From an uncultured Lentisphaerota bacterium (GTDB taxonomy: Bacteria > Verrucomicrobiota > Kiritimatiellia > RFP12 > UBA1067): a stretch of DNA of 64,000 nucleotides. The stretch spans positions 9,087 to 73,086 of the forward strand of contig CAMKJU010000003.1 of the NCBI GenBank assembly GCA_946413265.1, given 5' to 3'. Shown in pieces: positions 1,504 to 16,676 of the stretch. The translations under genes were made by a program, and so were the position numbers. The notes beneath the pieces are model-generated. The model made no database searches and was not told the DNA's origin. It saw only the letters and a program-made list of their open reading frames with translations. Position 1 is the stretch's first letter. Each line of letters starts with the position of its first letter.

Positions 1504-4500
1504 TTGAAGCGTGGAACAAAATTGTTTTCGATGTTTGCGACGACGATGGGCGTCGCGCTGTCCGCGTTCGGCGCGGGCGTAACCGGCGACGACGCGAAGG
1601 GCGCCGTCACGGGATGGGTGCGGCTGCGTGAGGCGCTGGGCGACGAGATCGACGCCGAGCTGGAGTCGGTCGCGACGTATCCGGGTGCGGACGGCAGGGG
1701 CGAGTTCCACGTGGTGAGCCTGAAGGGCGGCGGCTACGTCATTACTTCGGGCGACACGGAGATCACGCCGATTCTCGGCTACTCGAAGACCGGCACATTC
1801 GACGCAGACGAGAACAGTCCGATGTGGGCGCTCCTGACGGCAGACGTGGCGGCACGGGCCGCGGCGGTGGAGGCAAGCGGTGGGACGACAGCAAGCGTAC
1901 AACAGCAAGGGGTACGGCTTGCGGCGGCGAGCGGGGGGACGACAGCAAGCGTACAACAGCAAGATGGGGGGACAGCAAGCGTACAACAGCAAGAGGGCAA
2001 TGCCGACCAGTGGTCGAGGCTCATGGCGGCGGGCAAGAGCGGCGGGAAGCGGCTTCAGGCGAAGATGTCGTCGCCGCCTGCCGACCTGCGCGTGGCGTCG
2101 TTCGTACGGTCGAAGTGGGGCCAGTCGACGGCGACGTCCGGGAATGGCTACACCCACAACTACTACAACAACTACACGCCGAACAAGTACCCGTGCGGAT
2201 GCGTGGCGACGGCATTTGCGCAGACGATGCGCTATTTCGAGTTTCCGAATACGTCCGTGACCCCGAAGACCTTCACCTGCAAGGTAAGCGGCACTGCCAC
2301 CGACTTGACGATGCAGGGCGGCACGTACGACTGGGCACACATGCCCTACGTTCCGCGCGAGGTGACGTATGACTGGAACAACGTGATCGGCATCGCGAAA
2401 CTGACTTCGGACGCCGGCATTTCCGTCTGCATGAGCTACAAGTCGGGCGGCAGCTCGTCGAGTTCCAGCCGCGTGGGCGACAGCTTCGTGAGCACGTTCG
2501 GCTATTCCAACGCCATCATGGACTACGAGAGCGGTGGCGTCAGGGGCAATACGTTCAAGAAGAACGTCATCCCCAGCCTCGACGCCAAGCTCCCGGTCAT
2601 CCTGGGCATACAGGGCAGGCCGACCGGCAGCGCGACGGCGGATGCCGGACATTCCATCCTGACGGACGGCTACGGCTACTACAACAACCAGCTCTACATC
2701 CATCTGAACATGGGCTGGAGCGGATCGGACGACGCCTGGTACACGCCTGCCGACTCCGACACGGGCGCCATAATCAATTCGAGCGGCTACGACTTCACGA
2801 ACATCACCTGCACGGTGTTCAACATCTTCACGAACGCGACACAGTATTCCGTCATCGCGAGCGGGCGTGTCCTCGACCAGAGCGGCGAGCCGATCTCCGG
2901 CGCGACCGTCACCGCGAAGTACAACAGCACCACATACGCCACCGCGACGAGCGATGCGTACGGCGTGTATGCGCTGATCCTGCCTCCGACCTCGTCGACC
3001 CGCACCTACACGGTGAATGCGACGTGTTTCGGCTACACGAGCACCGGGGCGCGGTCGGTCTCTGCCTCCCGGACGGTAGGCGACGATGTGATCAAGGATG
3101 GAAACAACTATACGGGCTCTTTCTACAACAGGGCGTCCAACAGCAATTCCTACGACAACGATATCACGATGGAGTCGGCCAACCTGCCGCAGGCCGCGAC
3201 GCCGACGAGCGCCACGGCGGCGGAGTTCGGGACGTCCGCAAGCGTGACGCTTACATGTTCGACGGCAGGGGCGTCCATCTACTACACACTCGACGGATCG
3301 ACGCCCACTGTCTCCTCCACGCTCTACACCGGGCCGATCACGCTCACGAAGACGACGACCGTGAAGGCGCTGGCGGCCAAGAGCGGCTACGCTCGCAGCG
3401 ACGTGTTCACGCGCACGTTCGTGAGCGCCGCCGCGATCGACGAGTTCTATTTCCGCCACGACTTCTCAAACGGCACGAGGGTGTTTACGGCGGGCGAGGG
3501 ATCCGGCCTGACGCGAGACCAGACCTCGAGTACCGATTCCAACGCCAAGGCGGTCGAAGGGCCGGACGGCCCCGGAACGGCGCATCACCCCGGAAACGTG
3601 TGGGGACAGTTCGAGGATCCGACCGTCCTGCACGGCGCGTGGTCCGCCGCCATGTCGCTCTGCATGGACGCCACTGAGACCGGCATACTCGTCAGCTTCG
3701 GACGCCTCAACAAGGCTGACCAGAAGGAAGTCGCGCTCCTCTCGTCCTCCACGAAGTCGAACTTCTACTTCAAGGTGATGACGACCGATTCCAACAAGGC
3801 GAAGAGCGTGGAGAACACGTTCACGGTCGTGACCACAAACGACTTGACAGTGGGCTTCCACTCGTTCGTCGTCGCCTACAAGCCCGCGTCGGACGTGCTT
3901 AACGGCATCGGTACGTTCGACATCTACTGCGACGGCGTCCTTGTCCGCACCGTCTCGACCGACACGCCGAAGCTGCTGGGCGCGGACGTGGGCGGAATGC
4001 AGTACTGCATGTTCATGAGCGGCGGGAGCGACCTCACCGCGCTTGGGGCCGTCTCTTCGCAGGCGAACGACGCGGTGGCATTCTACGACTTCCGCTTCTA
4101 CGACCGCGCGTTCACGGCGTCCGAGGCGGCGAAATACGCGGCCGCCTATTATCCGTACGATCCGAACACGCCAGCGCAGTGGACGAACAACGACGGCACG
4201 GGCTCGTTCGACAACGCGGCGAACTGGGCGAACGGCAGAGTCCCGCATTCCGGCGACTTCATCGTCAACATTTCCGGCGATACGGCGATCGCCGTGGCCA
4301 ACACCTACAATCTGGGCGCGATGACCGTGCAGGGGACGGGCAACGTGACGTTCACGGGCGCTGGAAGCATCGGCGCGACGACGCTCGACGTCGCTTCCGG
4401 CCTGACGGTCGATACGTGCGGGAAGCTGACAGTGACCGGTTTCACTGGCGCGGGGAATGTTGTTCTCACGCCTGCCTCCGGCACGCTCGCGATTTCGTCC

Positions 4501-7020
4501 GCCTCGACGCTGACCGGCGATTTGACGATCAAGACCGATAGTTCGGTGGCGTTCAACGTGAACGCGGCAACGAGCGTGAGCAACTTCTTTGTGCGCGCCG
4601 CGACGAACGCGGTCGTCACCATGACAGTCTCCGGTGGATCTTTTGTTTCCACAGAGGCGATCGTCAAGAGCGGCGTCCTGAAGCAGGGCAGTGCAAACGC
4701 GCTCGGCGCGACACCGAAGGTGACGGTCGAGGACGGTGGCACGTTCGACTTCGACGGCAAGGTGATTGGCGACGGCGAGGCTGTTTCCGGGAAGGTTGTG
4801 ACCGAGTTCCACATCGCGGGCGCGGGCGCGGGCGACTGGCCGTGGGCGCTCACGTCTTCCGAGAGCATGACAAGTGGCAAGAATATCTGTATGCTCCACT
4901 TGGATGCCAATGCGACGATTGGCGGCGCAAAAGAGCTGTGGATGGGGGTGCGCAACGGCGCCGGCTGGAGCGCTGCCAACAAAAACCTGAACCTCAACGG
5001 CTTTACGCTCACGAAGACGGGCACGGGGGCGCTGCAGATACGCAGGCCATACTCGAGAGACGAAGGTGCGATAGATGTCCAGGCCGGAACGTTGAGAGTG
5101 AGCGGCTGGAGCAATGCGAATGCGGCGTATGGAGCGAGCTGCGTCAGCAACGTCGCGCTTGTCGTGCATGAAGGTGTAACGGCGGAGAATAGCGTAGGCT
5201 ATCCTCTCTATTTCAAGGCGCTTGACTGTCGCGGGGGAACGCTGACGACCTCCGCAAACGCGTTCGGCATTTGGGAGACGCTGTCCGGGCATGGCACGAC
5301 GGCGAAGCTTTCGTTCGGCGCCGGCGCGACGGCGACGCTTGACGGCAACCTCACGGTGTCCAGCGCAATGACGGCTGCCGGGGCGCTCTCGCTGACGCGG
5401 GCGGCGGGCGTGGAGACGAACGTCACCGTCGCGGCGACGGGGACGCTGACGGCATCTGGCGCGATCACCGTCGGCGCGGGCGTGATATTCAACATTGGCG
5501 CCAATCGTCCGACGGCGACGCTAACGGTCGCGGACGGTGCGACGATAGTCCTACGCAAGAATGATGACCTTGAAGTGAACATCGTTCTCAATGGCACGGC
5601 TAGGCCGCAGAACGTCGTCGTTTACGACACGGACGGCATGACGGTAATTTCAGACCCGACCATCACATACAATTCCGGCGAAGGCACGTTGACCATACGC
5701 GTCGTCTCGCCACATTGGAGGAACAACGACGGCACGGGGTCGCTCGACAGCGCGGCGAACTGGAATGTGATGCCGGAGAGCGGCGACAAAGTCATTCTGG
5801 AACTTTCAGACGACACGTTGATCACTGTAACCAACACGTACAATCTGGGCGTCATGACCGTGACGGGCACGGGCAACGTGACGTTCACGGGCGATGGAAG
5901 CATTGGCGCGACGACGCTCGACGTCGCTTCCGGCCAGACGGTCGATACAAGCGGGAAGCTGACCGTGTCCGGTTTCACAGGCGCGGGAAATGTCGTTCTC
6001 ACGCCCGCCTCCGACACGCTCGCGATTTCGTCCGCCTCGACGCTGACCGGCGACATGACGATCAAGACTGACACCAACACGGCGTTCAGCGTGAACGCCG
6101 CGACGAGCGTCCGCAAGTTCTACGTACACGCCGCGACAAACGCGGTCGTCACCATGACGGTCGGCTCCGGCGGTTCGTTCAAGGCGACCTCTGAGGCGAT
6201 TGTGCAGCACGGCGTTCTGCAGCAGGGTAGTGCAACTGCGCTCGGGACGACGCCCAAGATCAGCGTCGAGGACGGCGGCACGTTTGACATCAATGCAAAG
6301 ACCATCCGGCAGGAGACGCCGATCTACATCGCGGGCGCGGGCGCGGGCGACTGGCCGTGGGCACTCGCCACGTCCTCTGGTGCGATGGCAAGCGGCAACT
6401 ACCTCTATGACCTTTACCTGACGGCGGACGCGACCATCGGAGCCGGGCAGTTCAAGTTGGGGCGCAGCAACAAGAATTCCTTCATCTATCTGAACGGGCA
6501 TACGCTCACCGCGAAATCATGGGTGACGCTCAGGTGCATCAACACAATGGCAGGCACACTCGACCTCCAGGCCGGCGCGACGTTCAACGCCTACAACAAC
6601 CTCAATAAGCAGACCGCATACAGGGGGACGACGATGATTGTCCATCAGGGATTCAACTACAACAACCAGACGGACAGGGAAGTGTACATCTCCTACCTGA
6701 AGATGTACGGTGGTACGATAGGTTACGGCTCCACCGCGAGAGATTTCGGCGTGTGGAACGAGCTTCACGGATACGGCACTGTCAAGAGGCTCGTGATGGG
6801 GTCTGGCGCCAAATACTACCCAGACGGCGCGCACTACCTCGAAGCGTCAGAAAAGCTTTCGGGCACGATGATCATCGACCTGGGCGACATTGACCTGGCC
6901 ACGGTAAAGCGCATCCCGCTCTTCAAGGTCGGAACGGCCGACATGCTGCCTGCGCCGGAGGCGTTGCAGTTCGTCGGTGATTACTATAGAAAGAAATGGC
7001 GGAGGGTTGATGGGGGTTGA
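1504..7020 (+). CDS. giant secreted C10 (streptopain/SpeB-like) cysteine peptidase-adhesin with signal peptide, I69-like propeptide, C10 domain, chitobiase-C-like and LamG-like domains and two PATR-like beta-strand repeat blocks; native 3' end displaced by prophage
   Basis: TTG start with hydrophobic N-terminus. Catalytic Cys context YPCGCVATAFAQTMRYF and His context DAGHSILTDGYG. ASIYYTLDGSTP, FYDFRFYDRAFTASEA and GTGNVTFTG.GSIGATTLDV repeats. The last ~13 codons (DYYRKKWRRVDGG) are prophage-end sequence. Confidence 0.85.
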   Translation: MKRGTKLFSMFATTMGVALSAFGAGVTGDDAKGAVTGWVRLREALGDEIDAELESVATYPGADGRGEFHVVSLKGGGYVITSGDTEITPILGYSKTGTFDADENSPMWALLTADVAARAAAVEASGGTTASVQQQGVRLAAASGGTTASVQQQDGGTASVQQQEGNADQWSRLMAAGKSGGKRLQAKMSSPPADLRVASFVRSKWGQSTATSGNGYTHNYYNNYTPNKYPCGCVATAFAQTMRYFEFPNTSVTPKTFTCKVSGTATDLTMQGGTYDWAHMPYVPREVTYDWNNVIGIAKLTSDAGISVCMSYKSGGSSSSSSRVGDSFVSTFGYSNAIMDYESGGVRGNTFKKNVIPSLDAKLPVILGIQGRPTGSATADAGHSILTDGYGYYNNQLYIHLNMGWSGSDDAWYTPADSDTGAIINSSGYDFTNITCTVFNIFTNATQYSVIASGRVLDQSGEPISGATVTAKYNSTTYATATSDAYGVYALILPPTSSTRTYTVNATCFGYTSTGARSVSASRTVGDDVIKDGNNYTGSFYNRASNSNSYDNDITMESANLPQAATPTSATAAEFGTSASVTLTCSTAGASIYYTLDGSTPTVSSTLYTGPITLTKTTTVKALAAKSGYARSDVFTRTFVSAAAIDEFYFRHDFSNGTRVFTAGEGSGLTRDQTSSTDSNAKAVEGPDGPGTAHHPGNVWGQFEDPTVLHGAWSAAMSLCMDATETGILVSFGRLNKADQKEVALLSSSTKSNFYFKVMTTDSNKAKSVENTFTVVTTNDLTVGFHSFVVAYKPASDVLNGIGTFDIYCDGVLVRTVSTDTPKLLGADVGGMQYCMFMSGGSDLTALGAVSSQANDAVAFYDFRFYDRAFTASEAAKYAAAYYPYDPNTPAQWTNNDGTGSFDNAANWANGRVPHSGDFIVNISGDTAIAVANTYNLGAMTVQGTGNVTFTGAGSIGATTLDVASGLTVDTCGKLTVTGFTGAGNVVLTPASGTLAISSASTLTGDLTIKTDSSVAFNVNAATSVSNFFVRAATNAVVTMTVSGGSFVSTEAIVKSGVLKQGSANALGATPKVTVEDGGTFDFDGKVIGDGEAVSGKVVTEFHIAGAGAGDWPWALTSSESMTSGKNICMLHLDANATIGGAKELWMGVRNGAGWSAANKNLNLNGFTLTKTGTGALQIRRPYSRDEGAIDVQAGTLRVSGWSNANAAYGASCVSNVALVVHEGVTAENSVGYPLYFKALDCRGGTLTTSANAFGIWETLSGHGTTAKLSFGAGATATLDGNLTVSSAMTAAGALSLTRAAGVETNVTVAATGTLTASGAITVGAGVIFNIGANRPTATLTVADGATIVLRKNDDLEVNIVLNGTARPQNVVVYDTDGMTVISDPTITYNSGEGTLTIRVVSPHWRNNDGTGSLDSAANWNVMPESGDKVILELSDDTLITVTNTYNLGVMTVTGTGNVTFTGDGSIGATTLDVASGQTVDTSGKLTVSGFTGAGNVVLTPASDTLAISSASTLTGDMTIKTDTNTAFSVNAATSVRKFYVHAATNAVVTMTVGSGGSFKATSEAIVQHGVLQQGSATALGTTPKISVEDGGTFDINAKTIRQETPIYIAGAGAGDWPWALATSSGAMASGNYLYDLYLTADATIGAGQFKLGRSNKNSFIYLNGHTLTAKSWVTLRCINTMAGTLDLQAGATFNAYNNLNKQTAYRGTTMIVHQGFNYNNQTDREVYISYLKMYGGTIGYGSTARDFGVWNELHGYGTVKRLVMGSGAKYYPDGAHYLEASEKLSGTMIIDLGDIDLATVKRIPLFKVGTADMLPAPEALQFVGDYYRKKWRRVDGG
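1887..1993 (+). repeat. three tandem in-frame copies of the 24-nt motif GACAGCAAGCGTACAACAGCAAGG (starts 1887, 1941, 1971)
   Basis: Exact copies read directly from the sequence. Spacings of 54 and 30 nt are multiples of 3. Each copy is translated as TTASVQQQ in the propeptide-to-catalytic-domain linker. Confidence 0.95.
4170..4850 (+). repeat. intragenic duplication, copy 1 (PATR-like block)
   Basis: Protein segment QWTNNDGTGSFDNAANW...GAGAGDWPWAL recurs at 5707..6365, with long near-identical nucleotide runs (acgggcaacgtgacgttcacgggcg...). Confidence 0.85.
5707..6365 (+). repeat. intragenic duplication, copy 2 (PATR-like block)
   Basis: HWRNNDGTGSLDSAANW...GAGAGDWPWAL is colinear with 4170..4850. 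Confidence 0.85.
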
Positions 7021-7050
7021 AGAGGCTTGATGAGGATTGAAAAGAGTTGA
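7001..7050 (+). repeat. five tandem 10-bp phased repeats nnnGnTTGA at the prophage left end
   Basis: ggagGGTTGA tgggGGTTGA agagGCTTGA tgagGATTGA aaagAGTTGA, with exact 10-nt period, starting ~24 nt inside the junction. Confidence 0.9.
7026..7044 (+). repeat. left-end transposase-site-like inverted repeat (CTTGATGAGGATTGAAAAG)
   Basis: Matches the reverse complement of 40700..40717 (TTTGATTCACGATTGAAG) as TTGAT-n3/4-GATTGAA. Confidence 0.55.
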
Positions 7051-7327
7051 TTTTACTGGGGAAAATGGCGGATGTGGCGGGGAGAGGACTGGATTAGCGC
7101 GGGGAAAGCGCATTAGGGTTGCGCGGAAAGTTTTGGTTTGGGTTGGGGCGTGCTGGGTGTCGCGGTGGTGTGTAGGGCTATTTTGTTTGTCTCGCAGAAC
7201 CTGGTCAAGGCGTTCCAGATGCGATCGTGTGCGGCGCGTTCCATTGGCGCGGCTTCCATCGGTGGATCGCGCCACAGCGTTGCGAAAAGGGTTGTGTTGC
7301 GCTGCTCAAACGCAATCTCGATGCGCA

Positions 7328-7735
7328 TCATTTTGAAGGTGCCTCCAGGCTTTCTGGATCGGTAAGTTCGACGCGGCCGCCGAGTTCGATGAAGAAATGG
7401 GACTCGTCAGGCTCGCCCCATTCTGGGTGCCGACGCTTTGTGGCCGTGGCGTCGACATAGGCATACGGCATTAGACCGCTGGTGGTCTCAATTCCCATGC
7501 ACCAAAAAGCCATGCGCGGAGCATCTTTCGCGTAGCCACGGCGGAACTCTACGATCGGCGTTGTGCTTTCGGTGAACTTGCGGTCCCAGTTGTGAAGCCG
7601 CTTCCGCCAGTAGAGCGTGGGGAGCCGGTATTCCTCGCGCTTCTCGCCGGAGGCGATCATATCGAACCACTTGCCCTTCAGGACGAGCGGAAGGATGGAA
7701 CACTGGCTTCGCGGTAGTTTCAACAATTCAGCCAC
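7328..7735 (-). CDS. ASCH-domain-like protein
   Basis: LPLVLKGKWFDMIASGEKREEYR resembles the ASCH core. Lies in the minus-strand phage operon. Confidence 0.55.
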   Translation of the reverse strand: MAELLKLPRSQCSILPLVLKGKWFDMIASGEKREEYRLPTLYWRKRLHNWDRKFTESTTPIVEFRRGYAKDAPRMAFWCMGIETTSGLMPYAYVDATATKRRHPEWGEPDESHFFIELGGRVELTDPESLEAPSK

Positions 7736-7739
7736 TCTA

Positions 7740-8018
7740 TCATTCTCCGGTTGTATGCTCCAATCCTGTCTCGCGAGCAGAACGCTCTGCCGTCACGCCT
7801 CTTTTTCTTTCTTCGCACACTCTCTGAAAGATGTCCGACAACGCGCTCCATTCGTGGTCCATTCGCCCAGAAGCGTCACAACAGTTCCAGACCCGCGCGA
7901 AATACATCCGCGTCAGACCAGACAGCAGCCCGTAGAACTCGTTTTCGCTTAGTGCTTTGATGCACAGTTCACCGGCGACCATCTTGTTAATCATTGCTTG
8001 TTTCTCTTGGTCTGTCAT
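7740..8018 (-). CDS. hypothetical phage protein
   Basis: ORF sits tightly between the ASCH and portal genes on the same strand. Confidence 0.5.
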   Translation of the reverse strand: MTDQEKQAMINKMVAGELCIKALSENEFYGLLSGLTRMYFARVWNCCDASGRMDHEWSALSDIFQRVCEERKRGVTAERSARETGLEHTTGE

Positions 8019-8081
8019 TACCTATCTGCCTTTCTTGCGAGTTGGAGCTGTTTTTGGGGAAAGGCCGAGCGAGCTCGGCCA

Positions 8082-9665
8082 TCAATGCTTTTTATTGGTT
8101 GCCGATGGGCGGGCGGAGCGGGCGCCGGCCATGGAATAGACATAGAGCGCCTTTTCGATCACGTCGGCGGCGTTGGAGGGGTTGTGCTGGGATATCCATG
8201 CTTCGACGCGGCGGATACAATCCTCCGGCGAGGTGGACGCGGCGATGACGGACTGGAGCGGCGCAAGGTCGGCGGCGAAGGCCCGTGCAAGGTCGTCGGC
8301 GCGGGTGGCGGCCGGGCGGTCTTCAACGGAATCGGCTGCGGAGAGGGGGACGGGCTGGGTGACAGCAAGCGTACGACAGCAAGAGGGAACGGGCTCGGTG
8401 GCCCGTCCATCAGCTGCGGCCACGGAGGGCCGCCACCCCGATAAGGGAGCCGAAAAGGGAAGCATCGGGGATTGGGGGATGGCCGCGCGGCGGATGCCGA
8501 AGCCGATGCGCTCGGAAAGGGTATTGAGGGCGTCATCATCCGGCTCGAGGCCGGCTTCATGGAGCTTGCCGATCACGGTGAGGGTGGCGGTCTGCTCGCG
8601 GGCGGATTCTGAGCCGAAGAGTATCTTCGGCGCGCGGCCCGTGTGGCCGTTGATCGTCAGGAGCTGCTCGAAGAGCTGGCTGCGGAGCGTCGCGGCGAGG
8701 GACTTAGCATCGGCTTTTCTGATGTCATCCCGCACTTCTCCCTGGAGGTTCGCGGTGCCTCCGCCGAGCTCTCCCGTGGGTGAAGCGTTGGAGGACAGGG
8801 TTTGTCCGACAATGAGCTTCGATATCTCCTGGTTGCAGATGGTGATGAAGCGCTCGTGGCTGTTGGATGAGTCGCCGTTCGCGGCCTGGACGATCTCGAC
8901 CTCGGTGTTTTTCGCGACGACGATCGCGCCGAGGCGCACGGCAAGCCGGAACGCGCGCTCGAGCGTGGCCTTGCCCTTATCATCGGAGTACTTGCCCTTC
9001 AGGAACGGGACGCCGAAGCGCTCGAGGAGATCGGCCCACCACTGGCGCGACATCGTGCGCAGCAGCCACCAGAAAAGGATGGAGCGCATCGCGCCGCCCC
9101 AGTTGTCGGGTACGGGCATGAGGTCGCAGCGGTGGACGATGTAGCGTTCCGGCGTGACCTCGTGGGAGGTGTGGAGCGGCGTGCCGGTGTTGTCCACGTC
9201 GAAGATGTGCATCGCGCCCTGCGAGTAATCGAGGAGCTGGTAGTGGACCGGCACGAGCGCCTTGAGCGCGAAACCGCCGCCGGGAAGCGGCGCGAACACC
9301 TTCTCCACGACGGCGACGGGGAAGAGCGTGGCGTTCATCAGCCACGACTGCGCATCCGCGAAGGTGGCGTTGTCGATCACGTCGTCGCAGAGGTCGCTCG
9401 CGGCGACGTCGGCGGGGTCGTTTTTCTTGAACGGGATGACCGTGACCGGATCGCCGAGGACGGCGATCTTGCGCTTCATGAACTCGGAGCGCACCTGGTT
9501 GTCGTTGGAGATGACGTCGCGGTAGAGCGCGAAGAGCTCGCGGGTGTCGCCGTTCTGCGCCTGATCGACGATGCCCATGAGACGGTCTGCGGTGAGGTAG
9601 CGCACGAGGCTCGGCAGCTCGCGGCGGGGATCGAGGACGGTGATCTGGTCGGTGTATTCCTTCAT
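8082..9665 (-). CDS. Mu gp29-like portal protein (DUF935 family)
   Basis: The N-terminal LVRYLTADRLMGIVDQAQNGDTRELFALYRDVISNDNQVRSEFMKRK pattern is typical of DUF935 portals. Lies directly downstream of terminase. Confidence 0.85.
   Translation of the reverse strand: MKEYTDQITVLDPRRELPSLVRYLTADRLMGIVDQAQNGDTRELFALYRDVISNDNQVRSEFMKRKIAVLGDPVTVIPFKKNDPADVAASDLCDDVIDNATFADAQSWLMNATLFPVAVVEKVFAPLPGGGFALKALVPVHYQLLDYSQGAMHIFDVDNTGTPLHTSHEVTPERYIVHRCDLMPVPDNWGGAMRSILFWWLLRTMSRQWWADLLERFGVPFLKGKYSDDKGKATLERAFRLAVRLGAIVVAKNTEVEIVQAANGDSSNSHERFITICNQEISKLIVGQTLSSNASPTGELGGGTANLQGEVRDDIRKADAKSLAATLRSQLFEQLLTINGHTGRAPKILFGSESAREQTATLTVIGKLHEAGLEPDDDALNTLSERIGFGIRRAAIPQSPMLPFSAPLSGWRPSVAAADGRATEPVPSCCRTLAVTQPVPLSAADSVEDRPAATRADDLARAFAADLAPLQSVIAASTSPEDCIRRVEAWISQHNPSNAADVIEKALYVYSMAGARSARPSATNKKH
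8361..8383 (+). repeat. 24-nt motif copy (GACAGCAAGCGTACGACAGCAAG) inside the portal gene, antisense to it
   Basis: Read directly from the sequence. Translated on the minus strand as SCCRTLAVT. Flanked by a 14/16 direct duplication (8346..8361 vs 8385..8400). Confidence 0.95.
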
Positions 9666-9681
9666 GGGGGCCTTTCTTTCT

Positions 9682-9711
9682 GGCCGATCACAGATCGGCC
9701 ATCAAATCTAT
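9682..9711 (-). repeat. hairpin boundary element, copy A (GGCCGATCACAGATCGGCC + ATCAAATCTAT)
   Basis: 8-bp stem GGCCGATC/GATCGGCC with a 3-nt loop. Lies between the TerL stop (9708) and the portal start (9665). Confidence 0.85.
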
Positions 9712-11360
9712 GAGTTGAGGATTGGGGTGGTGGGGCCGTCGTCGGGGGGCGGGAGCATGGTGAGGCGGGAGGTGGCGGCTGAAGCCGCCCGCTCCGATAT
9801 TGACGCAACGCGGGCGCCGATCTGCACCGCGTCGGCCTTGGCCTCCTCGGTGCCTTCGATGATGGCGTGGAGGGAAAGCTTGGTGCCGTCGAAGAGGTCG
9901 CCGTGGCGGCCGGTGGCGGCGTCGAGCGAGTTGTCGAAGCCGCCTTTCATCTTCTTGACGAGCCGGAAGTCGTCTTTTACGTTGAAGTCGTTCGGGACGT
10001 CGATCTGGCTTTCGTCGATCGCGTTGACGAGCAGCTGGCCGAGGTAGGTCTTGTAGAGGACTCGCTCGCCCATGAAGTCGAGCTTTTCGGAGTTCTTGAC
10101 GAGGATGACGTCGCAGACGCCCTCGAGCTCCTCGCGCACCTCGGTGGCCCAGTACACCTCGCTCGTGGCGTCGATGGCGACGGCCTTTGCCTTGAGGCGC
10201 GTCGCCAGCTCGCGGAGGATGGCCTTCGGCTTCTTGGGGTCCTTTGACTTGAAGGAGAGTATCAACTTCGTCGCATAGCGCCCGTCGATGCGCTGGGTTA
10301 CGGCGATGCCAAAGGGGTTGGACTTCTCGCCCTCCGTTGTGGCGGGGTCCGCGCCGATGCCGACGGGGCCTTTCGAGAGGTCGAAGAGGTGCTCCCAGCC
10401 GGGCGGCAGATCATCCTCGGCATAGACGCACCCGGCGCGCTCGCCGCGCTCCATCGCCTCCATGAGCTTGATGAGGCCGACGGCAGCAGATCCGCCGGTG
10501 ATGAAGAGGCAGCCGTAGTTGCGGTCCCAGGCGTCCTTGTCGAACGCGCGGCGGCGCGACTCCTCGGGCGTGACCGGCTGGGCGGTCTTGGTGTCGTAGA
10601 GCGCGACGCCGTCGGCGTAGGCGTCCCAGGCATCGACGCGCAGACAGGTGACGCCCTTGACGGATTCATAGACGTTGCCGGACGGCGAGACGGGGAACTG
10701 CATTCCCGGCGGGGGCGCAAGCTGCTCGAAGGAGTAGTGGGCGTCGTCGGGCGGCGGCGTGGTGAGGAGTAGAATGCGGAACTGCGGGTTCGAGGCGACG
10801 ATCGGCTCGACCGCCTCCCAGACGTCCTTCCAGTTGCCGATGCGGCCCACCTCGTCGCACATGAGGTCGCCGGTCTCGCCGACGGTGTCCGGACGGAGCG
10901 CGACCACCTTGGTGCGGGAGTAGGAGGAACGTGTGTGGTAGTAGCGGAACTCCAGGCGCGAATGCTCGAAGAGGTCGGCGAAGTCGTCGTGCGTGAGGCC
11001 GCTCACGCTGCGGCCGGTCTTGTCGTCGGCGAGCTGCACCTTGCCTTCCTCGAGGCGCGCCATCGCCGCCGAGATCGCCTTCTCGAAGACGGCGGCCTCC
11101 TTGCGCACGATCTCGCGCGAGAGATTGAGCTTGGCGGAGCCGAAGATGACGGTGTGGTCGCGGAGCTTCATCATCTTCTTGAGCGCGACGTTCGCGCAGG
11201 TGGTGGTCTTGCCGTACTGGCGGCGCGCGATGAAGCCGAGGAGGCGGTACTGCTCGACGAGCTGGAACAGGCGGCGCTGGCCCGAGCGCATCTGGATGAC
11301 GGGGGACTGGCCGATCACAGATCGGCCATCAAATCTATTGGCGGTGGCTGGGGATGGCAT
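9708..11360 (-). CDS. terminase large subunit
   Basis: Walker A context FIARRQYGKTT. Positioned between the DUF3486 small subunit and the portal. Start chosen at MPSPATANRF (GAAAGG RBS), with an alternative start at 11291. The 165-aa upstream extension in the ORF track was rejected. Confidence 0.75.
   Translation of the reverse strand: MPSPATANRFDGRSVIGQSPVIQMRSGQRRLFQLVEQYRLLGFIARRQYGKTTTCANVALKKMMKLRDHTVIFGSAKLNLSREIVRKEAAVFEKAISAAMARLEEGKVQLADDKTGRSVSGLTHDDFADLFEHSRLEFRYYHTRSSYSRTKVVALRPDTVGETGDLMCDEVGRIGNWKDVWEAVEPIVASNPQFRILLLTTPPPDDAHYSFEQLAPPPGMQFPVSPSGNVYESVKGVTCLRVDAWDAYADGVALYDTKTAQPVTPEESRRRAFDKDAWDRNYGCLFITGGSAAVGLIKLMEAMERGERAGCVYAEDDLPPGWEHLFDLSKGPVGIGADPATTEGEKSNPFGIAVTQRIDGRYATKLILSFKSKDPKKPKAILRELATRLKAKAVAIDATSEVYWATEVREELEGVCDVILVKNSEKLDFMGERVLYKTYLGQLLVNAIDESQIDVPNDFNVKDDFRLVKKMKGGFDNSLDAATGRHGDLFDGTKLSLHAIIEGTEEAKADAVQIGARVASISERAASAATSRLTMLPPPDDGPTTPILNS
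11309..11338 (-). repeat. hairpin boundary element, copy B
   Basis: Identical 30-mer to copy A. Lies 17 nt upstream of the alternative TerL start (11291), which places it inside the first 17 codons of the longer TerL model. Confidence 0.85.
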
Positions 11361-11373
11361 GGCGGGCGGCCTT

Positions 11374-12015
11374 TCACTTGTCGCTTTCCCAGAGGTCGCC
11401 GAACATGAGACGCCCGAGGCGCTCGGTCTTCTCGTCGGAGCCGAGGCGCTTGTCGGTGGCGATGGAGAGCGCGTCGCGGTTCTGCGCCCACTTGACGAAG
11501 AGGCGCGCGGTGTCGCGCTCGAACTTCGCGCGGGAAAGCTCGAGCTGCTCCTTCTGGATGGCGTTCTTCTCCTCGGCGAGCGCGACCTTCTGCGCGGCGT
11601 TCTCGCCGGAGCGCAGGGCGGCGAGCGCCCGTGTGAGGTCGGCGATCTTGTCCTCGTCGGCGCCTTCGAGCGCGTCCATGATCTTGGCCGTGGCGATGTT
11701 GCAGGCGACGCCCGCCGCGCTGCCGCCGGCGGCGGAGGCGAGGGTGTGCGAGACTTCGGCGAGGCGGCGGAAGCGGTCGGCGTCCGCCTGGTCGTCGAGC
11801 CAGTCCTTGTAGCCGGTCGAGCGCCAGTCGGTGAGGTTCTGGGCGTTGACGGCATCAGATTCCATTTCGCGGAGGATCTTCTTTGTTTCCTTCAGGCCGT
11901 TGAGCCAGTCGAGCAGCTCCGCGCCCTGCGCGCCGTCGCGGATGCGCTCGTTGAGCTCGTTGCGGACCGCGAACGGGAGGCGGCCTATCTTCGAGCGGTA
12001 GCAGCGCGTGTTCAT
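11374..12015 (-). CDS. Mu gp27-like terminase small subunit (DUF3486-like)
   Basis: RSKIGRLPFAVRNELNERI N-terminus and coiled-coil remainder. Immediately upstream of TerL. Confidence 0.65.
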   Translation of the reverse strand: MNTRCYRSKIGRLPFAVRNELNERIRDGAQGAELLDWLNGLKETKKILREMESDAVNAQNLTDWRSTGYKDWLDDQADADRFRRLAEVSHTLASAAGGSAAGVACNIATAKIMDALEGADEDKIADLTRALAALRSGENAAQKVALAEEKNAIQKEQLELSRAKFERDTARLFVKWAQNRDALSIATDKRLGSDEKTERLGRLMFGDLWESDK

Positions 12016-12278
12016 ACGACCGTCACCCTTCCTTCAAGCACCCATTTCTTGATGCCCTCCTCCGTGGCCTGCCAGACGGCGGAGTTGTCCATGGGGTCGA
12101 TCTGGAGATCGACCATCTTCATCTTGTGGAGGGCGCGCAGGGCGTCGGAGACCTCGTCGACGGTGCAGCGCTTGTCGAGCATCTGCGAGGCGTTGAGGCG
12201 CTGCGCGATCGCCGCCTCGGTGTAGGCCGCGGGATAGCGCGGGGAGAGGAACGCGATTATCAGCTGCTTGAGGTTCAT
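12012..12278 (-). CDS. hypothetical phage protein (possible winged-helix)
   Basis: Has 4-nt overlaps with both neighbours, suggesting translational coupling. Confidence 0.5.
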   Translation of the reverse strand: MNLKQLIIAFLSPRYPAAYTEAAIAQRLNASQMLDKRCTVDEVSDALRALHKMKMVDLQIDPMDNSAVWQATEEGIKKWVLEGRVTVV

Positions 12279-12634
12279 TTCTTGTCTACCTTTCCTTCGA
12301 TTCTTCCGATCATGCGCTCGACGCCGCGCTGCCAGTCTCCGATGGAGGAGATGAGGGTGTTGAACCTTTCGGTGTTCTCCGCCGTGAGCGAGCGTATCAG
12401 GTCGAACTGCTTGGCTAGTATCTTGTCGATGCGTTCGCGCTCGGCCTTGACCTCGGCCTTCAGCTCGGAGATCTCGCGCTTCGTGGCGTAGTCCTTCGCC
12501 AGCTCCTCAGGGAGGGGAGGGTCGCGCCGGAGGCCGCGTACGATCGAGACGACGTTGTTGACGATCGCGGCGAGCGCCGCCAGCGCGACGACCGCCGCGC
12601 CGATTATCAGGAGGTATGTGGTGCTTTCGTGCAT
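12275..12634 (-). CDS. single-pass membrane protein with coiled-coil C-terminus
   Basis: N-terminal TM segment YLLIIGAAVVALAALAAIV followed by a charged heptad-like region. First gene of the minus-strand operon. Confidence 0.55.
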   Translation of the reverse strand: MHESTTYLLIIGAAVVALAALAAIVNNVVSIVRGLRRDPPLPEELAKDYATKREISELKAEVKAERERIDKILAKQFDLIRSLTAENTERFNTLISSIGDWQRGVERMIGRIEGKVDKK

Positions 12635-12722
12635 GAGGTAGGATCCTTTTCTGTCCTTGCGGGGGGAATGATACCACGGGAGGGGGCGGGAGCGCCCCGC
12701 GCCGTGCGGATGATGCGGTACT

Positions 12723-12750
12723 GGCCGAACGCAGTTCGGCCATCAAATCT
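12723..12750 (-). repeat. hairpin boundary element, copy C (GGCCGAACGCAGTTCGGCC + ATCAAATCT)
   Basis: Same element as copies A and B, with a compensatory stem change (T:A to A:T). Lies in the divergent intergenic region 12635..12820. Confidence 0.8.
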
Positions 12751-12801
12751 GGCGGACAGGCCGCACAATCCGCACGGCGCGGGGCAGAACGGGCGCGGAT
12801 G

Positions 12802-12810
12802 TGGGATAAT
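12802..12810 (+). promoter_or_regulatory. extended -10-like element TGGGATAAT, 10 nt before the ATG at 12821
   Basis: Read directly from the sequence. There is no room for an SD between the predicted TSS and the ATG. Confidence 0.45.
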
Positions 12811-12820
12811 CCCGCCCGCA

Positions 12821-13306
12821 ATGAGCAAGGCAGTTTTTCCAGAGAAGCCGATCGTGAGGCCGCTTGCGGGCACGGACTACGTGCTCGCGGAGGATTTCTA
12901 CTTTCCGGCCACGGTGGGCGGGTGGGACGTGGTCGTGCACGTGGCGCCCGGCTTCAGGACGGACGGCGCGTCGATACCGCGCCTCCTGTGGCGCGTGCTG
13001 GGCTCGCCGTACGACCCGGACGTGATCGCAGCCGCCATCGCTCACGACGCGCTGTACCGCGGCGAGATCGTGCCGCGCAAGGACGCCGACGCCGCCTTCC
13101 TCGCGCTGATGGAGGCGTGCGGCGTCGCGGAGCGCAAGCGCCGGTGGCTGCTGCGCGGCGTAAGGTGGTTCGGATGGATCACGTGGGCACGGCACACGCC
13201 GGAATCGGTGGCCGAGGCCAGAAGGCACATTTCCCTCGCTTTCGCGGGGGGAGGAAAGACAACGAAACGGGGCTTCGCCCCGAACCCCAAAAGGAAACAT
13301 CAATGA
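12821..13306 (+). CDS. DUF1353-like phage protein
   Basis: The FRTDGASIPRLLWRVLG...AAIAHDALY pattern is typical of DUF1353. Confidence 0.65.
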   Translation: MSKAVFPEKPIVRPLAGTDYVLAEDFYFPATVGGWDVVVHVAPGFRTDGASIPRLLWRVLGSPYDPDVIAAAIAHDALYRGEIVPRKDADAAFLALMEACGVAERKRRWLLRGVRWFGWITWARHTPESVAEARRHISLAFAGGGKTTKRGFAPNPKRKHQ

Positions 13307-13839
13307 AAACACAGACGCTGAAAATCAGCCCGCCGTGGATCGTGTGGCAGAAGCAGGCGAAAGCCCTCTTCGAGAACGACCCGGACATCAGGATCGACGC
13401 CGCGACGGCCGCGGCGGACCCGGAAATCACGCTCTACGTGGCGAAGCCCGCCAAGGCCGCCGCGCTCGCGCGGATGCTGCCTGAGTGCAAGGAGTTCGGC
13501 AACGTGAAGTGCCGCATCAACATCGTGCCGCCGAACGGCGCCCTCGCCATGCCCAAGGCGCCGGAGGGCGGGGCGGAGCTGGCCATGGCCGCGTTCGGCG
13601 AGAACGGGGCCGTCGCCTGCATCCGCCCGGTGTCGAAGGGCCTCTTCCGGGACCTCGCCTACGTGGCCTTCGACCGCGAGGTGGTGCAGTTCCCGGCGGA
13701 CAACATCGCCGACATCAACGGCAACTGGAGCGGCCTCATGGAGGACATCGCCCGCGAGGTGTGCGAGAGGGCCGAGGGGATCTTCTTCTGCACGGCGGGC
13801 GCGGGCGAGCTCACAGCCGGGCTCGGCGTGTGGCCGTGA
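13303..13839 (+). CDS. hypothetical phage protein
   Basis: ATGA overlap with the upstream gene and an AAAGGAAA RBS. Confidence 0.55.
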   Translation: MKTQTLKISPPWIVWQKQAKALFENDPDIRIDAATAAADPEITLYVAKPAKAAALARMLPECKEFGNVKCRINIVPPNGALAMPKAPEGGAELAMAAFGENGAVACIRPVSKGLFRDLAYVAFDREVVQFPADNIADINGNWSGLMEDIAREVCERAEGIFFCTAGAGELTAGLGVWP

Positions 13840-13871
13840 AAGGTTGAAAGGTTGAAAAGTTGAAAGGAAAG
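13836..13871 (+). repeat. tandem octamer array (GTTGAAAG)n in the intergenic gap
   Basis: gtgaaaggttgaaaggttgaaaagttgaaaggaaag spans the stop of 13303..13839 and runs up to the RBS of 13877. Confidence 0.9.
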
Positions 13872-13876
13872 AAAAC

Positions 13877-14404
13877 ATGAAAAAACTGATGATGACTGCG
13901 CTCGCCGCGATCGCGGCGGCGATGACGGGATGCACCTCCACCTCCGCTGAATGGGGCGGGGAGCGCGTGATCACGGGCGCGGACGGGAAGCCGCTCGTCG
14001 CCAATGACGGGACCGTGCAGAAGGCGAAGGAGCCGGTCAGGCTCTCCAGCTGGCGGCACTGGATCGACACCCACGTCGACACGGCGAAGCTGGACGTGGA
14101 GAAGGACAGGATCGAGTTCACGATGAACGGCTACAAGGCGGAGCCGAGCGAGGAGCTGAACAAGCTGGTCGAAACCTCGCTCAAGGGCGCCGCCGAACTC
14201 GCCGCCAAGGTGGGCGCGGCCATCGCGACGAGCGGCGGCAGCGTGGCGGGGGACGCCGCCTACACGGCGCTCCGCAACGCGATCTCGAAGTACATCTCCA
14301 AGGGCGGCGACGCCTCGAAGGCGAAGATCACCTGCGAGAACGGCAACTGCACCATCTCCGACGGCACCGTGACGGAAACGTGCACGGACTGCATCGCAAA
14401 ATGA
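13877..14404 (+). CDS. lipoprotein
   Basis: Signal peptide with lipobox AAMTGC. Confidence 0.65.
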   Translation: MKKLMMTALAAIAAAMTGCTSTSAEWGGERVITGADGKPLVANDGTVQKAKEPVRLSSWRHWIDTHVDTAKLDVEKDRIEFTMNGYKAEPSEELNKLVETSLKGAAELAAKVGAAIATSGGSVAGDAAYTALRNAISKYISKGGDASKAKITCENGNCTISDGTVTETCTDCIAK

Positions 14405-14414
14405 GGAGGCGACC

Positions 14415-14546
14415 ATGCCCCAAGAAGAATACGACAAGCGCCTCGCAGAACTCGAGGCCGAGGCCGACCGGCTCGGATGCTGCGTGATTCCGGCGCATCC
14501 GATCCCGCCTCCGGACGAACCCCGCAAAACAGACGCGGGCAACTGA
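14415..14546 (+). CDS. small hypothetical protein (43 aa)
   Basis: AGGAGG lies 5 nt upstream of the ATG. Not in the ORF track because it is under 60 aa. Confidence 0.4.
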   Translation: MPQEEYDKRLAELEAEADRLGCCVIPAHPIPPPDEPRKTDAGN

Positions 14547-14712
14547 CCTTGGCGCGGCACGGGATCATGCATACGGCGGGCGAACCATCATCCGGCATGT
14601 GGCCGCCTCGCCGGTGCCCGGCGGGCGTGCCGCGGTTCTAACTACACCGCCGGGCTAGACTCCTCGGCTCGCCCGCCGCCCCGGGCCCAATGTCGGACGG
14701 GCGGCAGTTCTA

Positions 14713-14748
14713 GTGAATAGCGAAGAGTGAATAGTGAATAGGTGAAAG
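14713..14748 (+). repeat. tandem heptamer array (GTGAATA/GTGAAAG)
   Basis: gtgaatagcgaagagtgaatagtgaataggtgaaag lies immediately upstream of the ATG at 14750. Confidence 0.85.
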
Positions 14749-14749
14749 A

Positions 14750-14899
14750 ATGAGATCAAATCACTGCTGCTACACGCCGATCACGGTGTCGATGTCCACA
14801 TTCAGCATCCAACTACCGCCATATCCGCGCAGGGTCTCGCAGAAGGAACGCCGCAAGAAGGCACGCTACAGGCGGAGCCAGGGAATCAGGGTGAGGTAG
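14750..14899 (+). CDS. small basic hypothetical protein (49 aa)
   Basis: GGTGAAAG RBS-like sequence upstream. Arg/Lys-rich C-terminus. Confidence 0.3.
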   Translation: MRSNHCCYTPITVSMSTFSIQLPPYPRRVSQKERRKKARYRRSQGIRVR

Positions 14900-14917
14900 G
14901 GAGCAGTTACAACCAGC

Positions 14918-15559
14918 TCACACGTCGAGCTTCTTTTTCAAATCGCACATTGACGGCGGATCGTCGGGCTTCTTACACCGTTTCTTGATTCTGTTCAATT
15001 CTTTTTCTACACTCTTCCGCATCTGCCAGACGCGAAATCTGGCCCACCGTCCACGTATGATTTGCCAGAGGCAAAACAGCGGATAAGGCAGCAACACTGC
15101 CAGCGTGACGTTGTAGTACCACTGAAAAACAATTATCAAGACGCTCGCCAGCGCTGCGCACATCATGACGCGCTTCATGAACATGCCGGAATCCTTGGTG
15201 TCGCCCAGAAACTCGGCGTCCTTATTTTCTATGTATTTCTGGAGCTCGTGAAGCCGCGATCTGAATTCCTTATGTCCTTCTTTGTCCGTCAGACTTTCAG
15301 CATCCTCTATCCACTGAGCGTCCTTGATGCCCTTTTTACAAGCGACAAAGATTGCATGTACGCCTTCGTATACTGACACGCGTGCCTTTTGAATCGTTGC
15401 CGCCCAGGTGTTGATCGTGAATGCGATTGCCCACGCCGCCGAATCGTCTCGGCTCGTCATCAGCCAGGCCCAGAAAGCTTGCAGACAGGAAACGACACAT
15501 CCACATATAGAAATGGCGTCGGGATCCGCTCCCGACGCCACCGCATCCGCCAGAATCAT
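14918..15559 (-). CDS. multi-pass membrane protein (moron gene 2)
   Basis: Hydrophobic segments ISICGCVVSCLQAFWAWLM, AAWAIAFTINTWAATI and VMMCAALASVLIIVFQWYYNVTLAVLLPYPLFCLWQII. AT-richer than its neighbours by eye. 4-nt overlap with the upstream gene. Confidence 0.6.
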   Translation of the reverse strand: MILADAVASGADPDAISICGCVVSCLQAFWAWLMTSRDDSAAWAIAFTINTWAATIQKARVSVYEGVHAIFVACKKGIKDAQWIEDAESLTDKEGHKEFRSRLHELQKYIENKDAEFLGDTKDSGMFMKRVMMCAALASVLIIVFQWYYNVTLAVLLPYPLFCLWQIIRGRWARFRVWQMRKSVEKELNRIKKRCKKPDDPPSMCDLKKKLDV

Positions 15560-16065
15560 ATCGCCGTTCCTGCCTTGTAAAGTGCGTCAAACTTGGCCTG
15601 GGCGAGGCTCGCGAGTTCCGCCTCGTTGACGCAGAACGTGGCTCTGTCGTTTGCCACGTCATACTCAAGACGCACAGCCTTGTCGTCCATGACCGCGAGG
15701 TTGATGCCGATGTTTTCCGGATGCGCCGCCCTGCGGATGTGGCTTCTCAGTTCAGGGTCAATGCCCTCAAGATGGGTAAGCGCTTCGGGGGTGACGACGA
15801 GCAAGGAGACCGCAACGCTCCCTCCCTTAACAGCTTTTGTGAGGGCATCTATGACACACGGACTCCACACCTCCGGATTCATGCGCTGCGCGACAGCGCA
15901 GAACGAATGTTTTGCGTGACCAATCATCTCTTCGATGATGATCGCGGCATGCTTCGGACTCGAGTTCTCGATTCGTCTGAACCCATCGGCTTCAAGCATG
16001 GCACACACTGCCTGACGGTAATCGTCAAGCAAGCGTTCATTTCGTACCCTGTCCTGCTCGTTCAT
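15556..16065 (-). CDS. cytoplasmic protein with degenerate PLD-like fold pattern (moron gene 1)
   Basis: The pattern IIEEMIGHAKHSFCAV...VIDALTKAVKGGSVAVSLLVV...INLAVMDDKAVRL resembles a PLD/Nuc-like domain, but INL replaces the HxK catalytic motif. This is a weak by-eye call. Confidence 0.35.
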   Translation of the reverse strand: MNEQDRVRNERLLDDYRQAVCAMLEADGFRRIENSSPKHAAIIIEEMIGHAKHSFCAVAQRMNPEVWSPCVIDALTKAVKGGSVAVSLLVVTPEALTHLEGIDPELRSHIRRAAHPENIGINLAVMDDKAVRLEYDVANDRATFCVNEAELASLAQAKFDALYKAGTAI

Positions 16066-16172
16066 CTCTGCGTTCTCCTGTTATCCCAAAAAGGGACGCG
16101 GACATTTTACCACAGCGCGGGTGGATTGCAAGCCGGAAATGTTGCGTTTGTTGCGCGCAACTTTCCGCCCCC

Positions 16173-16556
16173 TCACCCCTCACCAATCATCTTGCGCATC
16201 TTGTCCGCGAGCTTGCGGTGCGGGCAGCGGGCGCACTGCGGCAGCTCGCCGGGCACCTGCGGGGATCGGCTCTGACGTGAATCCCTGCAACCGGACGCCG
16301 GCATGACCGCCCCAGATCCCCGCGACTCAGCCCCCACCCTCTCCCTCTCATCAACCGACGACGACGAAACGCCGAGCAGATCGTTGGGGGTGGTGCCAAG
16401 AACTTGTGCGATATGTACAAGTTGGTCTAATGATGGCTCTCGCCGCCCTTTTTCATAATGACAATACACGGCTTGCTTGAGACCCAGACGGGCCGCAAAC
16501 ACACCTTGCGCTTCATTTCCTCGAAGCGCGACCAGTCGCTCAGAAAGGCAGCTCAT
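16173..16556 (-). CDS. XRE-family HTH repressor (Mu c / CI analogue)
   Basis: HTH QGVFAARLGLKQAVYCHYEKGRREPSLDQLVHIAQVLGTTPNDLL. Divergent from the early operon. Confidence 0.8.
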   Translation of the reverse strand: MSCLSERLVALRGNEAQGVFAARLGLKQAVYCHYEKGRREPSLDQLVHIAQVLGTTPNDLLGVSSSSVDERERVGAESRGSGAVMPASGCRDSRQSRSPQVPGELPQCARCPHRKLADKMRKMIGEG

Positions 16557-16676
16557 AAAAAAATAATACGAATTGTAAAAACACCCTTGCGCTCCGCTTA
16601 TACGTTTTGTATAATATCCCGCGTTGCCGCAAGGAGGGCAACGAGAAGTTTATCAAAAACGGTCAGAGGATAGAAG
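16557..16676. promoter_or_regulatory. divergent immunity/early promoter-operator region
   Basis: Minus-strand TATTAT (16568..16563) lies 6 nt before the repressor ATG. Plus-strand TTGCGC-17nt-TGTATAAT lies at 16587..16615. Direct repeats ATACGnnTTGTAWAA (16566..16580 and 16598..16613) overlap both -10 elements. Hairpin CGTTGCC/GGCAACG at 16622..16643. Confidence 0.6.

Follow-up and report, generated by a model that had tools for sequence, protein, structure and literature searches.

Repetitive extragenic palindromic (REP) sequences and bacterial interspersed mosaic elements (BIMEs) are high-copy imperfect palindromes which form a stable hairpin, lie outside genes and have a cognate REP-associated tyrosine transposase (RAYT) of the Y1 HUH type, and the stoperators of cluster A mycobacteriophages, the gp71 sites of L5, are bound by the repressor and confined to the phage. 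The Rickettsia palindromic elements (RPEs) of Ogata et al. (2000, 2002), as reviewed in PMC10969869, are short palindromic repeats of about 100–150 bp that stand in frame in unrelated functional genes. MITEs (miniature transposable elements with inverted repeats, such as the Correia elements) and the intragenic enterobacterial repetitive intergenic consensus (ERIC) and BOX sequences are small non-autonomous repeats that may lie in or be fused to open reading frames (ORFs) and vary between strains (PMC10969869). DNA uptake sequences (DUS) and uptake signal sequences (USS) reach 765–1,892 copies per genome, about one per kb (PMC2817400). In the window studied here, that is, the whole 64,000-nucleotide stretch of contig CAMKJU010000003.1 from an uncultured Lentisphaerota bacterium (assembly GCA_946413265.1), a non-palindromic motif of 22–23 nt occurs in a Mu-like prophage, in the interdomain linker of an I69-C10 protease (ORF 1504..7020) and in the signal peptide of a surface protein (44563..49368). 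The motif is best regarded, with a probability of roughly 60%, as a BIME/RPE-like, non-palindromic host mini-repeat family which is restricted to one genus and has expanded strongly in one rumen Kiritimatiellae clade.

A motif of the host genome and its prophage copies

The window contains 17 copies of the motif at ≤3 mismatches, where 100 shuffles give an expectation of 0.00, and a genome-wide census of the assembly from which it comes (G000; 4.70 Mb in 275 contigs, 61.5% G+C) gives 140 copies, or one per 34 kb, against 0 for a reversed-pattern control. The 123 copies outside the window lie on more than 70 other contigs, and 127 lie outside the prophage, so that about 90% of the copies are chromosomal. 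The family consensus, (R-N-G)ACARCAAGCG[T/G/C]AC[A/G/T]ACARCAAG, is about 23 nt long, is built of two 8-mers ACARCAAG spaced 14 nt and is open in all six reading frames. Since the half-sites ACAGCAAG and ACAACAAG show no over-representation in G000 when taken alone, the unit is the whole 22-mer. When the 22-mer ACARCAAGCGBACDACARCAAG is used as the reference, 124 copies are exact and 10, 5 and 5 copies have one, two and three mismatches, respectively, with 0, 1 and 17 for the reversed control; with mismatched copies so few, and partly matched by the control itself, a tail of decayed copies is all but missing. The 23-mer has a folding energy of −0.5 kcal/mol (z = −0.41) and forms no stable hairpin, in comparison with −12.5 kcal/mol (z = −3.9) for a GGTAGGG unit resident in the same genome.

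Among 40 relatives examined, the motif is confined to a single genus, where G020 has 92 copies, G022 has 111 and the other members have 0–15; 16 genomes from other families of the same order have none. All genomes compared are metagenome-assembled genomes (MAGs), and the clade was identified as ruminant-gut Kiritimatiellae MAGs through orthologues of a housekeeping gene. A description of such an element in Kiritimatiellae was not found in the literature. Rfam searches of the window and of the leader loci described below returned nothing above threshold, only spurious miRNA-hairpin matches, and no tRNAs were found in the search. In 24% of copies RTG comes after the motif; this triplet is mostly out of frame, belongs to a G-rich 3′ extension and is not a start codon. 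A CRISPR-like regular spacing at C124 was rejected, as it is a 66-nt coding tandem repeat.

The motif is kept at the level of nucleotides. In 22 pairs of orthologous copies, 10 of 484 motif positions differ, compared with 451 of 5160 flanking positions (2.1% vs 8.7%, Fisher p = 5.6e-9); six of the ten differences fall on the four positions already known to vary, and the 18 invariant positions differ at a rate of 1.0% (p = 1e-10). The frame-0 codons ACA, GCA, GTA and CAA are rare, each making up 5–10% of its synonymous family. The low divergence at orthologous sites, together with the missing decay tail, therefore argues that the DNA sequence itself, and not the peptide, is maintained.

The prophage carries genes for the Mu portal, F, I and T, a transposase and a MuB-like ATPase, and its insertion site lies within the 3′ end of the protease gene. 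Because its bounds (Table 1) are set by synteny with G022, the three linker copies and the copy at 44603 are chromosomal, in agreement with the claim of the original prediction that the motif is not confined to the prophage. The insertion exchanged the last ~30 residues of the protease (GGIPKGWELRTLKEGYGYALVRRQFMVIVK in G022) for DYYRKKWRRVDGG, the stretches concerned being 6948–7020 and 40747–40839, and the protease may have lost a C-terminal sorting tail. The prophage is enriched about 14-fold in the motif. Apart from the copy in the portal gene, its copies stand in gaps between genes or, in frame, within the genes of the ParB-like protein and the transposase. The ParB-like ORF (17508–19058) runs for 516 codons without a stop and comprises three modules joined by repeats of ~60 nt (GPKPAAP-IQQADNSKEKEPK-M), each of which contains the motif; the ParB-loop copy is absent from the G015 homologue.

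The number of copies does not follow the phage. G022 has 111 copies though it lacks the prophage and its transposase, and G015, with 0 copies, harbours a related but degraded phage (84% identity). At the G015 site homologous to 18253 the sequence is 33 nt shorter, and at that homologous to 18681 a GGGAGGG-type REP hairpin stands instead. In G020 the phage is present at another location and the protease has no triple. Across genomes, the presence of the phage transposase showed no correlation with motif copy number. These comparisons indicate that the motif is a property of the host clade which the phage has acquired. Of the two options left by the original prediction, spread between phage and host or a genome-wide host element taken up by the phage, it is the latter that agrees with the 123 copies outside the window, the restriction to one genus and the copies of prophage-free G022. 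A host-wide repeat thus accounts for a "signal" common to phage and host, and it warns against reading such a signal as phage regulation.

Copies in protease linkers and signal peptides

Genes outside the window were called with our own crude codon-usage caller (3,184 genes, 86% coding). About 79 of the 140 copies lie inside predicted genes, where 70 are in sense orientation and only about seven are internal and antisense (p = 3.5e-14), the latter being mostly inverted partners of sense copies. In 42 of the sense copies the motif is read in frame 0 as TASVQQQ, and in the other 28 as QQAYNSK or SKRTTA. At least 13 further copies are antisense in signal peptides, and the rest are intergenic and mostly co-directional with the flanking genes, often just past a stop or ahead of a start; GC skew is confounded with gene orientation and could not tell whether the bias goes with replication or with transcription. 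Mean Kyte–Doolittle values are −0.9 to −2.1 for the sense peptides, which are hydrophilic, and +2.1 to +2.4 for the antisense peptides, which are hydrophobic, and this explains why the motif makes linkers in one orientation and signal-peptide cores in the other. The disorder-tolerant placing proposed earlier is thereby upheld. Motif-bearing genes include those of UxaA, Tex, an SbcC-like ATPase, C10 proteases and glycosidases of the GH2, GH5, GH28, GH31, GH106, GH127 and NAGLU types, these being real enzymes whose domains are intact.

In the protease, three exact plus-strand copies of ACAGCAAGCGTACAACAGCAAG stand in frame 0 of the ORF and the linker is translated as ...ASGGTTASVQQQGVRLAAASGGTTASVQQQDGGTASVQQQEGNADQW..., in which the copies lie at residues 129–163. 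Since these residues fall between the two Pfam domains (residues 28–108 and 219–413), the copies are in the interdomain linker. The original prediction had placed three in-frame copies here, which is right, and had read GGTTASVQQQ three times, which is loose: units 1 and 2 read so, and unit 3 is GGTASVQQQ. The orthologues in G022 and G020 (88–89% identity) and in G024 (76%) have 0 copies and a linker shorter by 63 nt (ASASSGAGLRLGATPRPTDEDASSAW), and the conserved G-x-R-L core of the linker is retained between copies 1 and 2 in the window protease. Metagenome contig L072 (95% identity) has two copies, exactly one 30-nt unit being missing, and a 1-nt indel upstream; contig L067 (68% identity) has one linker copy with the same right flank; and contigs L057, L058 and L059 have 0. 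At the level of assemblies, then, 0, 1, 2 or 3 copies are found in related contigs and genomes, and the copy number varies between close relatives by whole in-frame units, in the manner of a variable-number tandem repeat, as the suggestion that copy number could alter linker length had foreseen. A 3.7-kb contig binned with G021 (G021:C349, locus L002) is 98% identical to the window protease and has the identical triple. Other G021 loci are only ~75–80% identical to G000, and this contig may be mis-binned. A further short contig, G021:C272 with the phage transposase, is like it 97–98% identical to G000, and by their identity both are probably mis-binned from a G000-like strain.

The same site is used in other members of the protease family. 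Among the I69-C10 paralogues of G000, G020 and G022, 11 of 29 have one to three sense copies, always in either or both of two places that flank the G-x-R-L core, and sister paralogues differ in their presence: G020_C231 has two copies and G022_C195 has none, the two being related by a length-neutral replacement. The I69-C10 linker is a recurrent motif site, at which copy number alters linker length.

The signal peptide of the surface protein is of the classical type and reads MSKVVKISEKGATTCCRTLAVTVTLFCSAVSAFA, followed by D. The inverted copy within it differs from the consensus by one mismatch and is read as CCRTLAV, which agrees with the inverted copy that had been predicted for an N-terminal signal-like segment. 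The orthologue of this protein in prophage-free G022 retains the inverted copy with two changes, but the G022 protease lacks the triple; absence from both genes with no chromosomal copies beyond the window, which would have pointed to local phage-derived events only, is not what is seen, and chromosomal copies are plentiful. The copy at 44603 is a diverged member of a class of at least 13 proteins with the antisense motif at codons ~6–12 of the signal peptide, in the pattern K-x-A-K-T-CCCTLAV-T-L-C and with the common sequence MKIAKTCCCTLAVTLC. In the three largest proteins of the class and the window surface protein the likeness extends to C-terminal repeat regions; the other members match only over the first ~15–25 residues. 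A near-identical 5′ DNA cassette, composed of the ribosome-binding-site region, ATGAAGATTGCAAAAA, the antisense motif and CACGCTCTGCG, encodes MKIAKTCCCTLAVTLC; judged by its sequence, this shared cassette looks like a portable signal peptide.

Two further arrangements of the motif recur in the genome. One is an intragenic array of one antisense copy followed by two to four sense copies, i.e., a hairpin plus a tandem; two such arrays come directly after a DUF5703_N domain, and C166 has 14 copies within 1.5 kb at the end of the contig. The other is a module of ~200 nt with a sigma-70-like promoter (TTGACG ... TGCTAACAT) and a leader with a GAAA-tetraloop hairpin, which carries a perfect 22-bp hairpin formed by an inverted motif pair and lies upstream of signal-peptide protein genes. 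The module is conserved upstream of seven secreted-protein genes, matches no Rfam family and is a candidate for a new cis-regulatory leader.

Table 1. Coordinates of the protease, prophage, surface protein and motif copies in the window, and of motif arrangements elsewhere in the assembly
Feature	Position	Strand	Basis or remark
I69-C10 multidomain protease gene	1504..7020	+	Chromosomal; Pfam, synteny
Inhibitor_I69 (Spi) propeptide domain, residues 28–108	1585..1827	+	Pfam
Low-complexity linker from I69 propeptide to C10 catalytic domain, residues 109–218	1828..2157	+	
Motif copy 1, in frame, TASVQQQ	1888..1909	+	Just 5′ of conserved linker G-x-R-L core
Motif copy 2, in frame, TASVQQQ	1942..1963	+	3′ of G-x-R-L core
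Motif copy 3	1972..1993	+	30-nt tandem unit with copy 2
Peptidase_C10 catalytic domain, residues 219–413	2158..2742	+	Pfam
Mu-like prophage, TG...CA termini	6979..40745		Synteny with G022, whose locus lacks it
Motif copy in Mu-type portal gene, antisense to the gene	8362..8383	+	Only copy with a clear flanking duplication (8346–8361 vs 8385–8400)
Twelve phage motif copies (span 17525..28296)	17525, 17870, 18056, 18253, 18681, 19060, 20749, 21317, 23226, 26636, 27790, 28275	all +	
Displaced 3′ protease remnant, GGIPKGWELRTLKEGYGYALVRRQFMVIVK and stop	40747..40839	+	Collinear with intact G022 gene
Signal peptide of surface protein 44563..49368	44563..44664	+	
Inverted motif copy, 1 mismatch, CCRTLAV	44603..44624	-	Start of signal-peptide h-region
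5′ signal-peptide cassette sites in G000	C26 (3682, 11174, 12017, 13329, 22331, 27262), C7:72133, C12:24470, C55:8594, C78:16472, C180:2937		
Antisense-plus-sense arrays in G000	C19:50478-50571, C47:22638-22770, C34:22788-22882, C34:24168-24247, C82:12935-13047, C166:7144-8650		
Promoter-leader module loci L079-L083 in G000	C24 (29154, 29702, 33211, 43288), C39:606-662, C164:1572-1628		

Gain and loss of copies and sharing of sites with REP-like units

Twenty-four motif loci were concatenated as one query, and orthologous sites were recovered in relatives. Where a G022 orthologue was recovered, about two-thirds of the sites are shared with G022. At sites that are not shared, the lengths differ by 18–63 nt, always in multiples of three and with domains intact, which is in-frame insertion of the RPE type relative to orthologues; C45:1304, for instance, is a clean in-frame insertion of 51 nt. 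At C18:32393, C52:1065 and C42:20434, the sister species are empty or have another mini-repeat (GGTAGGG or CTGGGACAA hairpins), and at C111:6193 the 22-mer has been added directly 5′ of a REP unit already present in G021 and G024. None of the 80 species representatives, not even those 93–95% identical, has the copy that lies in the C-terminal tail of Tex, so that both recent and old gains are seen. Target-site duplications were looked for in two ways, and flank matches were no better than in shuffled pairings, except for the copy at 8362.

The REP-like unit, GGTAGGG plus a stem-loop, has 420 copies in G000 by a k-mer census, of which ~58% lie inside predicted genes in either orientation. Intragenic REPs in frame are unusual. 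Three smaller hairpin families, headed by GGGAGGG, TCGGGGAAG and CTGGGACAA, behave like the GGTAGGG units. Mosaics of the BIME type are formed, for instance, at C34:3041, C43:5394, C111:6193 and C15:11835, where the 22-mer abuts GGTAGGG or GGGAGGG hairpins. Weak matches (E ~1e-7) to Y1_Tnp (RAYT/IS200-like, PF01797) are found in G000 and in 15 of 24 other genomes of the genus; two Y1_Tnp-like ORFs lie at C41:28189-28461 and C89:1742-1921. An accessory single-chain RNA polymerase is present in the three high-copy genomes and also in G024, G006 and G002, which have 2–9 copies, and thus shows no specific link with the motif.

Readings of the motif and comparison with known systems

If the motif is a mini-repeat family of the host, new copies would arise by templated copying without target duplication, either through patch gene conversion between linkers or through a trans-acting enzyme that inserts at G-rich R-N-G sites, which might be the enzyme that mobilises the REP-like elements of the same genome. 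Slippage between neighbouring copies would change the tandem number, selection on reading frame and peptide hydropathy would set where and in which orientation copies survive, and the strict conservation could come from recognition by a sequence-specific factor, be it a mobilising enzyme or a DNA- or RNA-binding protein. Several observations weigh against this reading. The 22-mer does not fold, so that a hairpin-dependent HUH mechanism would need another mode of recognition; target-site duplications are lacking; and the inserted stretches have variable unique flanks, with net changes of 18–63 nt and some length-neutral replacements, which gene conversion fits as well as transposition. In the genus, the weak Y1_Tnp matches show no relation to motif copy number, and no mobilising or binding protein emerged from the comparisons of Y1_Tnp, the phage transposase and the RNA polymerase. 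Such strong conservation of orthologous copies is unexpected for purely selfish DNA, and each copy could have a cellular function. The co-direction of intergenic copies, including the 12 in the plus-strand arm of the phage, is left unexplained by a peptide filter. In addition, the genome-wide gene calls come from a crude caller and the other genomes are MAGs.

The possibility of a cellular function leads to a cis-acting explanation, in which the motif is a high-affinity DNA or sense-RNA site for a host factor, for instance, a nucleoid protein, a factor for transcription elongation or antitermination, or a protein that processes or stabilises RNA, with each copy under selection and the prophage using the same factor. 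It is a tentative alternative, and on present evidence a rather unlikely one. It would suit orthologous copies that are ~4–8 times better conserved than their coding flanks and have no decay tail, the keeping of rare codons, the co-direction of intergenic and phage copies with transcription, the many copies at gene 3′ ends or just ahead of starts, and the perfect 22-bp hairpin of inverted pairs in the promoter-leader module upstream of seven secreted-protein genes. The sites of a regulon, however, are degenerate, unlike these 124 almost identical 22-mers; close relatives differ by gains and losses of copies, and at a given site a copy and an unrelated REP-like hairpin can stand in for one another; the antisense copies of signal peptides are equally well kept, contrary to a purely sense-RNA function; and there is neither an Rfam match nor a known binding protein. 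A self tag of the DNA-uptake type, built up by biased uptake and recombination (molecular drive) as in the DUS of Neisseriaceae and the USS of Pasteurellaceae, is highly improbable. The genus specificity of the motif, its coding-region copies in all frames at poorly conserved positions and the conservation of orthologous copies would agree with such a tag, and uptake sequences act similarly in coding regions (PMC2817400); but the motif occurs once per 34 kb and not about once per kb, is 22 nt long, and comes with length changes instead of point substitutions. It also uses rare codons and is enriched ~14-fold in a prophage, whereas uptake sequences correlate with preferred codons and are absent from genes without homologues in related genomes (PMC2817400).

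Still less probable is an origin in the phage, as a stoperator-like operator or another signal of a Mu-like phage that has leaked into the chromosome around the integration site and farther away. There are 13 copies in ~20 kb of phage DNA, the 12 of the plus-strand arm all being co-oriented with transcription, the prophage went into the same protease gene that has the triple, and a few viral contigs have one to four copies, always on one strand per contig. This origin is largely refuted by G022, G015 and G020, in which copy number is not tied to the phage, and the copies on other contigs lie in housekeeping and glycosidase genes. The lowest probability of all is given to selection on the peptide, by which a TASVQQQ module would serve, e.g., as a spacer or autoprocessing site between the I69 propeptide and C10 and would have been amplified as a coding tandem. 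Its occurrence at the same two linker positions in 11 of 29 I69-C10 paralogues and its composition, which is like that of the native S/T/A-rich linker, would be in line with this. As a general explanation it is refuted, because the 22-mer is translated in three sense frames and also in antisense ones, occurs in non-coding DNA as well and is invariant at synonymous sites despite rare codons; zero-copy orthologues also exist.

To our knowledge, in-frame selfish DNA in proteins is textbook matter only for Rickettsia. In this gut clade of free-living bacteria, a repeat that is far shorter and not palindromic acts likewise: it gives secreted C10 proteases alleles that differ in linker length, it provides part of the signal peptide of at least 13 proteins that are secreted and for the most part show homology in that stretch alone, and its nucleotides are conserved in spite of codon bias. 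A dedicated enzyme or binding factor, if there is one, would mean a new way for protein linkers to evolve and possibly a tool for site-directed short insertions. A more far-reaching proposal, which we consider doubtful, is that the 22-mer is an actively maintained, recognised "joint" written into domain boundaries and 5′ ends by a putative machinery. Such a joint would bring with it preformed linker peptides or cores of signal peptides, and identical DNA handles at module borders would aid the exchange of propeptides, signal peptides and domains between non-homologous genes, making it a bacterial counterpart to exon shuffling in which the prophages of the clade take part.

The host mini-repeat family can be set beside each of the known systems. 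With the stoperators it shares, within the phage, many asymmetric sites in one orientation relative to transcription and often at gene boundaries, but its copies are mostly chromosomal and a prophage-free sister species has 111 of them. Like DUS/USS, it is lineage-specific, tolerated at poorly conserved coding positions and conserved at orthologous sites; it differs in being ~30-fold rarer and twice as long, in coming as insertion or replacement, in using rare codons and in being enriched and not depleted in the prophage. Similar to MITEs, ERIC and BOX, it is a small non-autonomous repeat that lies in or is fused to ORFs and differs between strains, but it has no terminal inverted repeats or target-site duplication and is an order of magnitude shorter. 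It resembles REP/BIME in being short and high-copy, in lacking target duplications, in its mosaics and site swaps with REP-like "GGTAGGG + hairpin" units and in the weak Y1_Tnp genes of the same genomes. In contrast to these elements, it has neither a hairpin nor a GTAG head, most of its copies are intragenic and not extragenic, and no RAYT gene flanked by motif copies was found. As with the RPEs, it stands in frame in unrelated functional genes, adds peptide at permissive places and has many copies per genome; unlike them, it is 22–23 nt long, without fold or palindrome, is read in several frames and both orientations with no single conserved peptide, builds signal-peptide cores, and has its nucleotides conserved far above the flanks. 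Although it departs from the defining features of REP, RPE, MITE and DUS/USS, the motif is closest in behaviour to the Rickettsia RPEs and to BIME mosaics.

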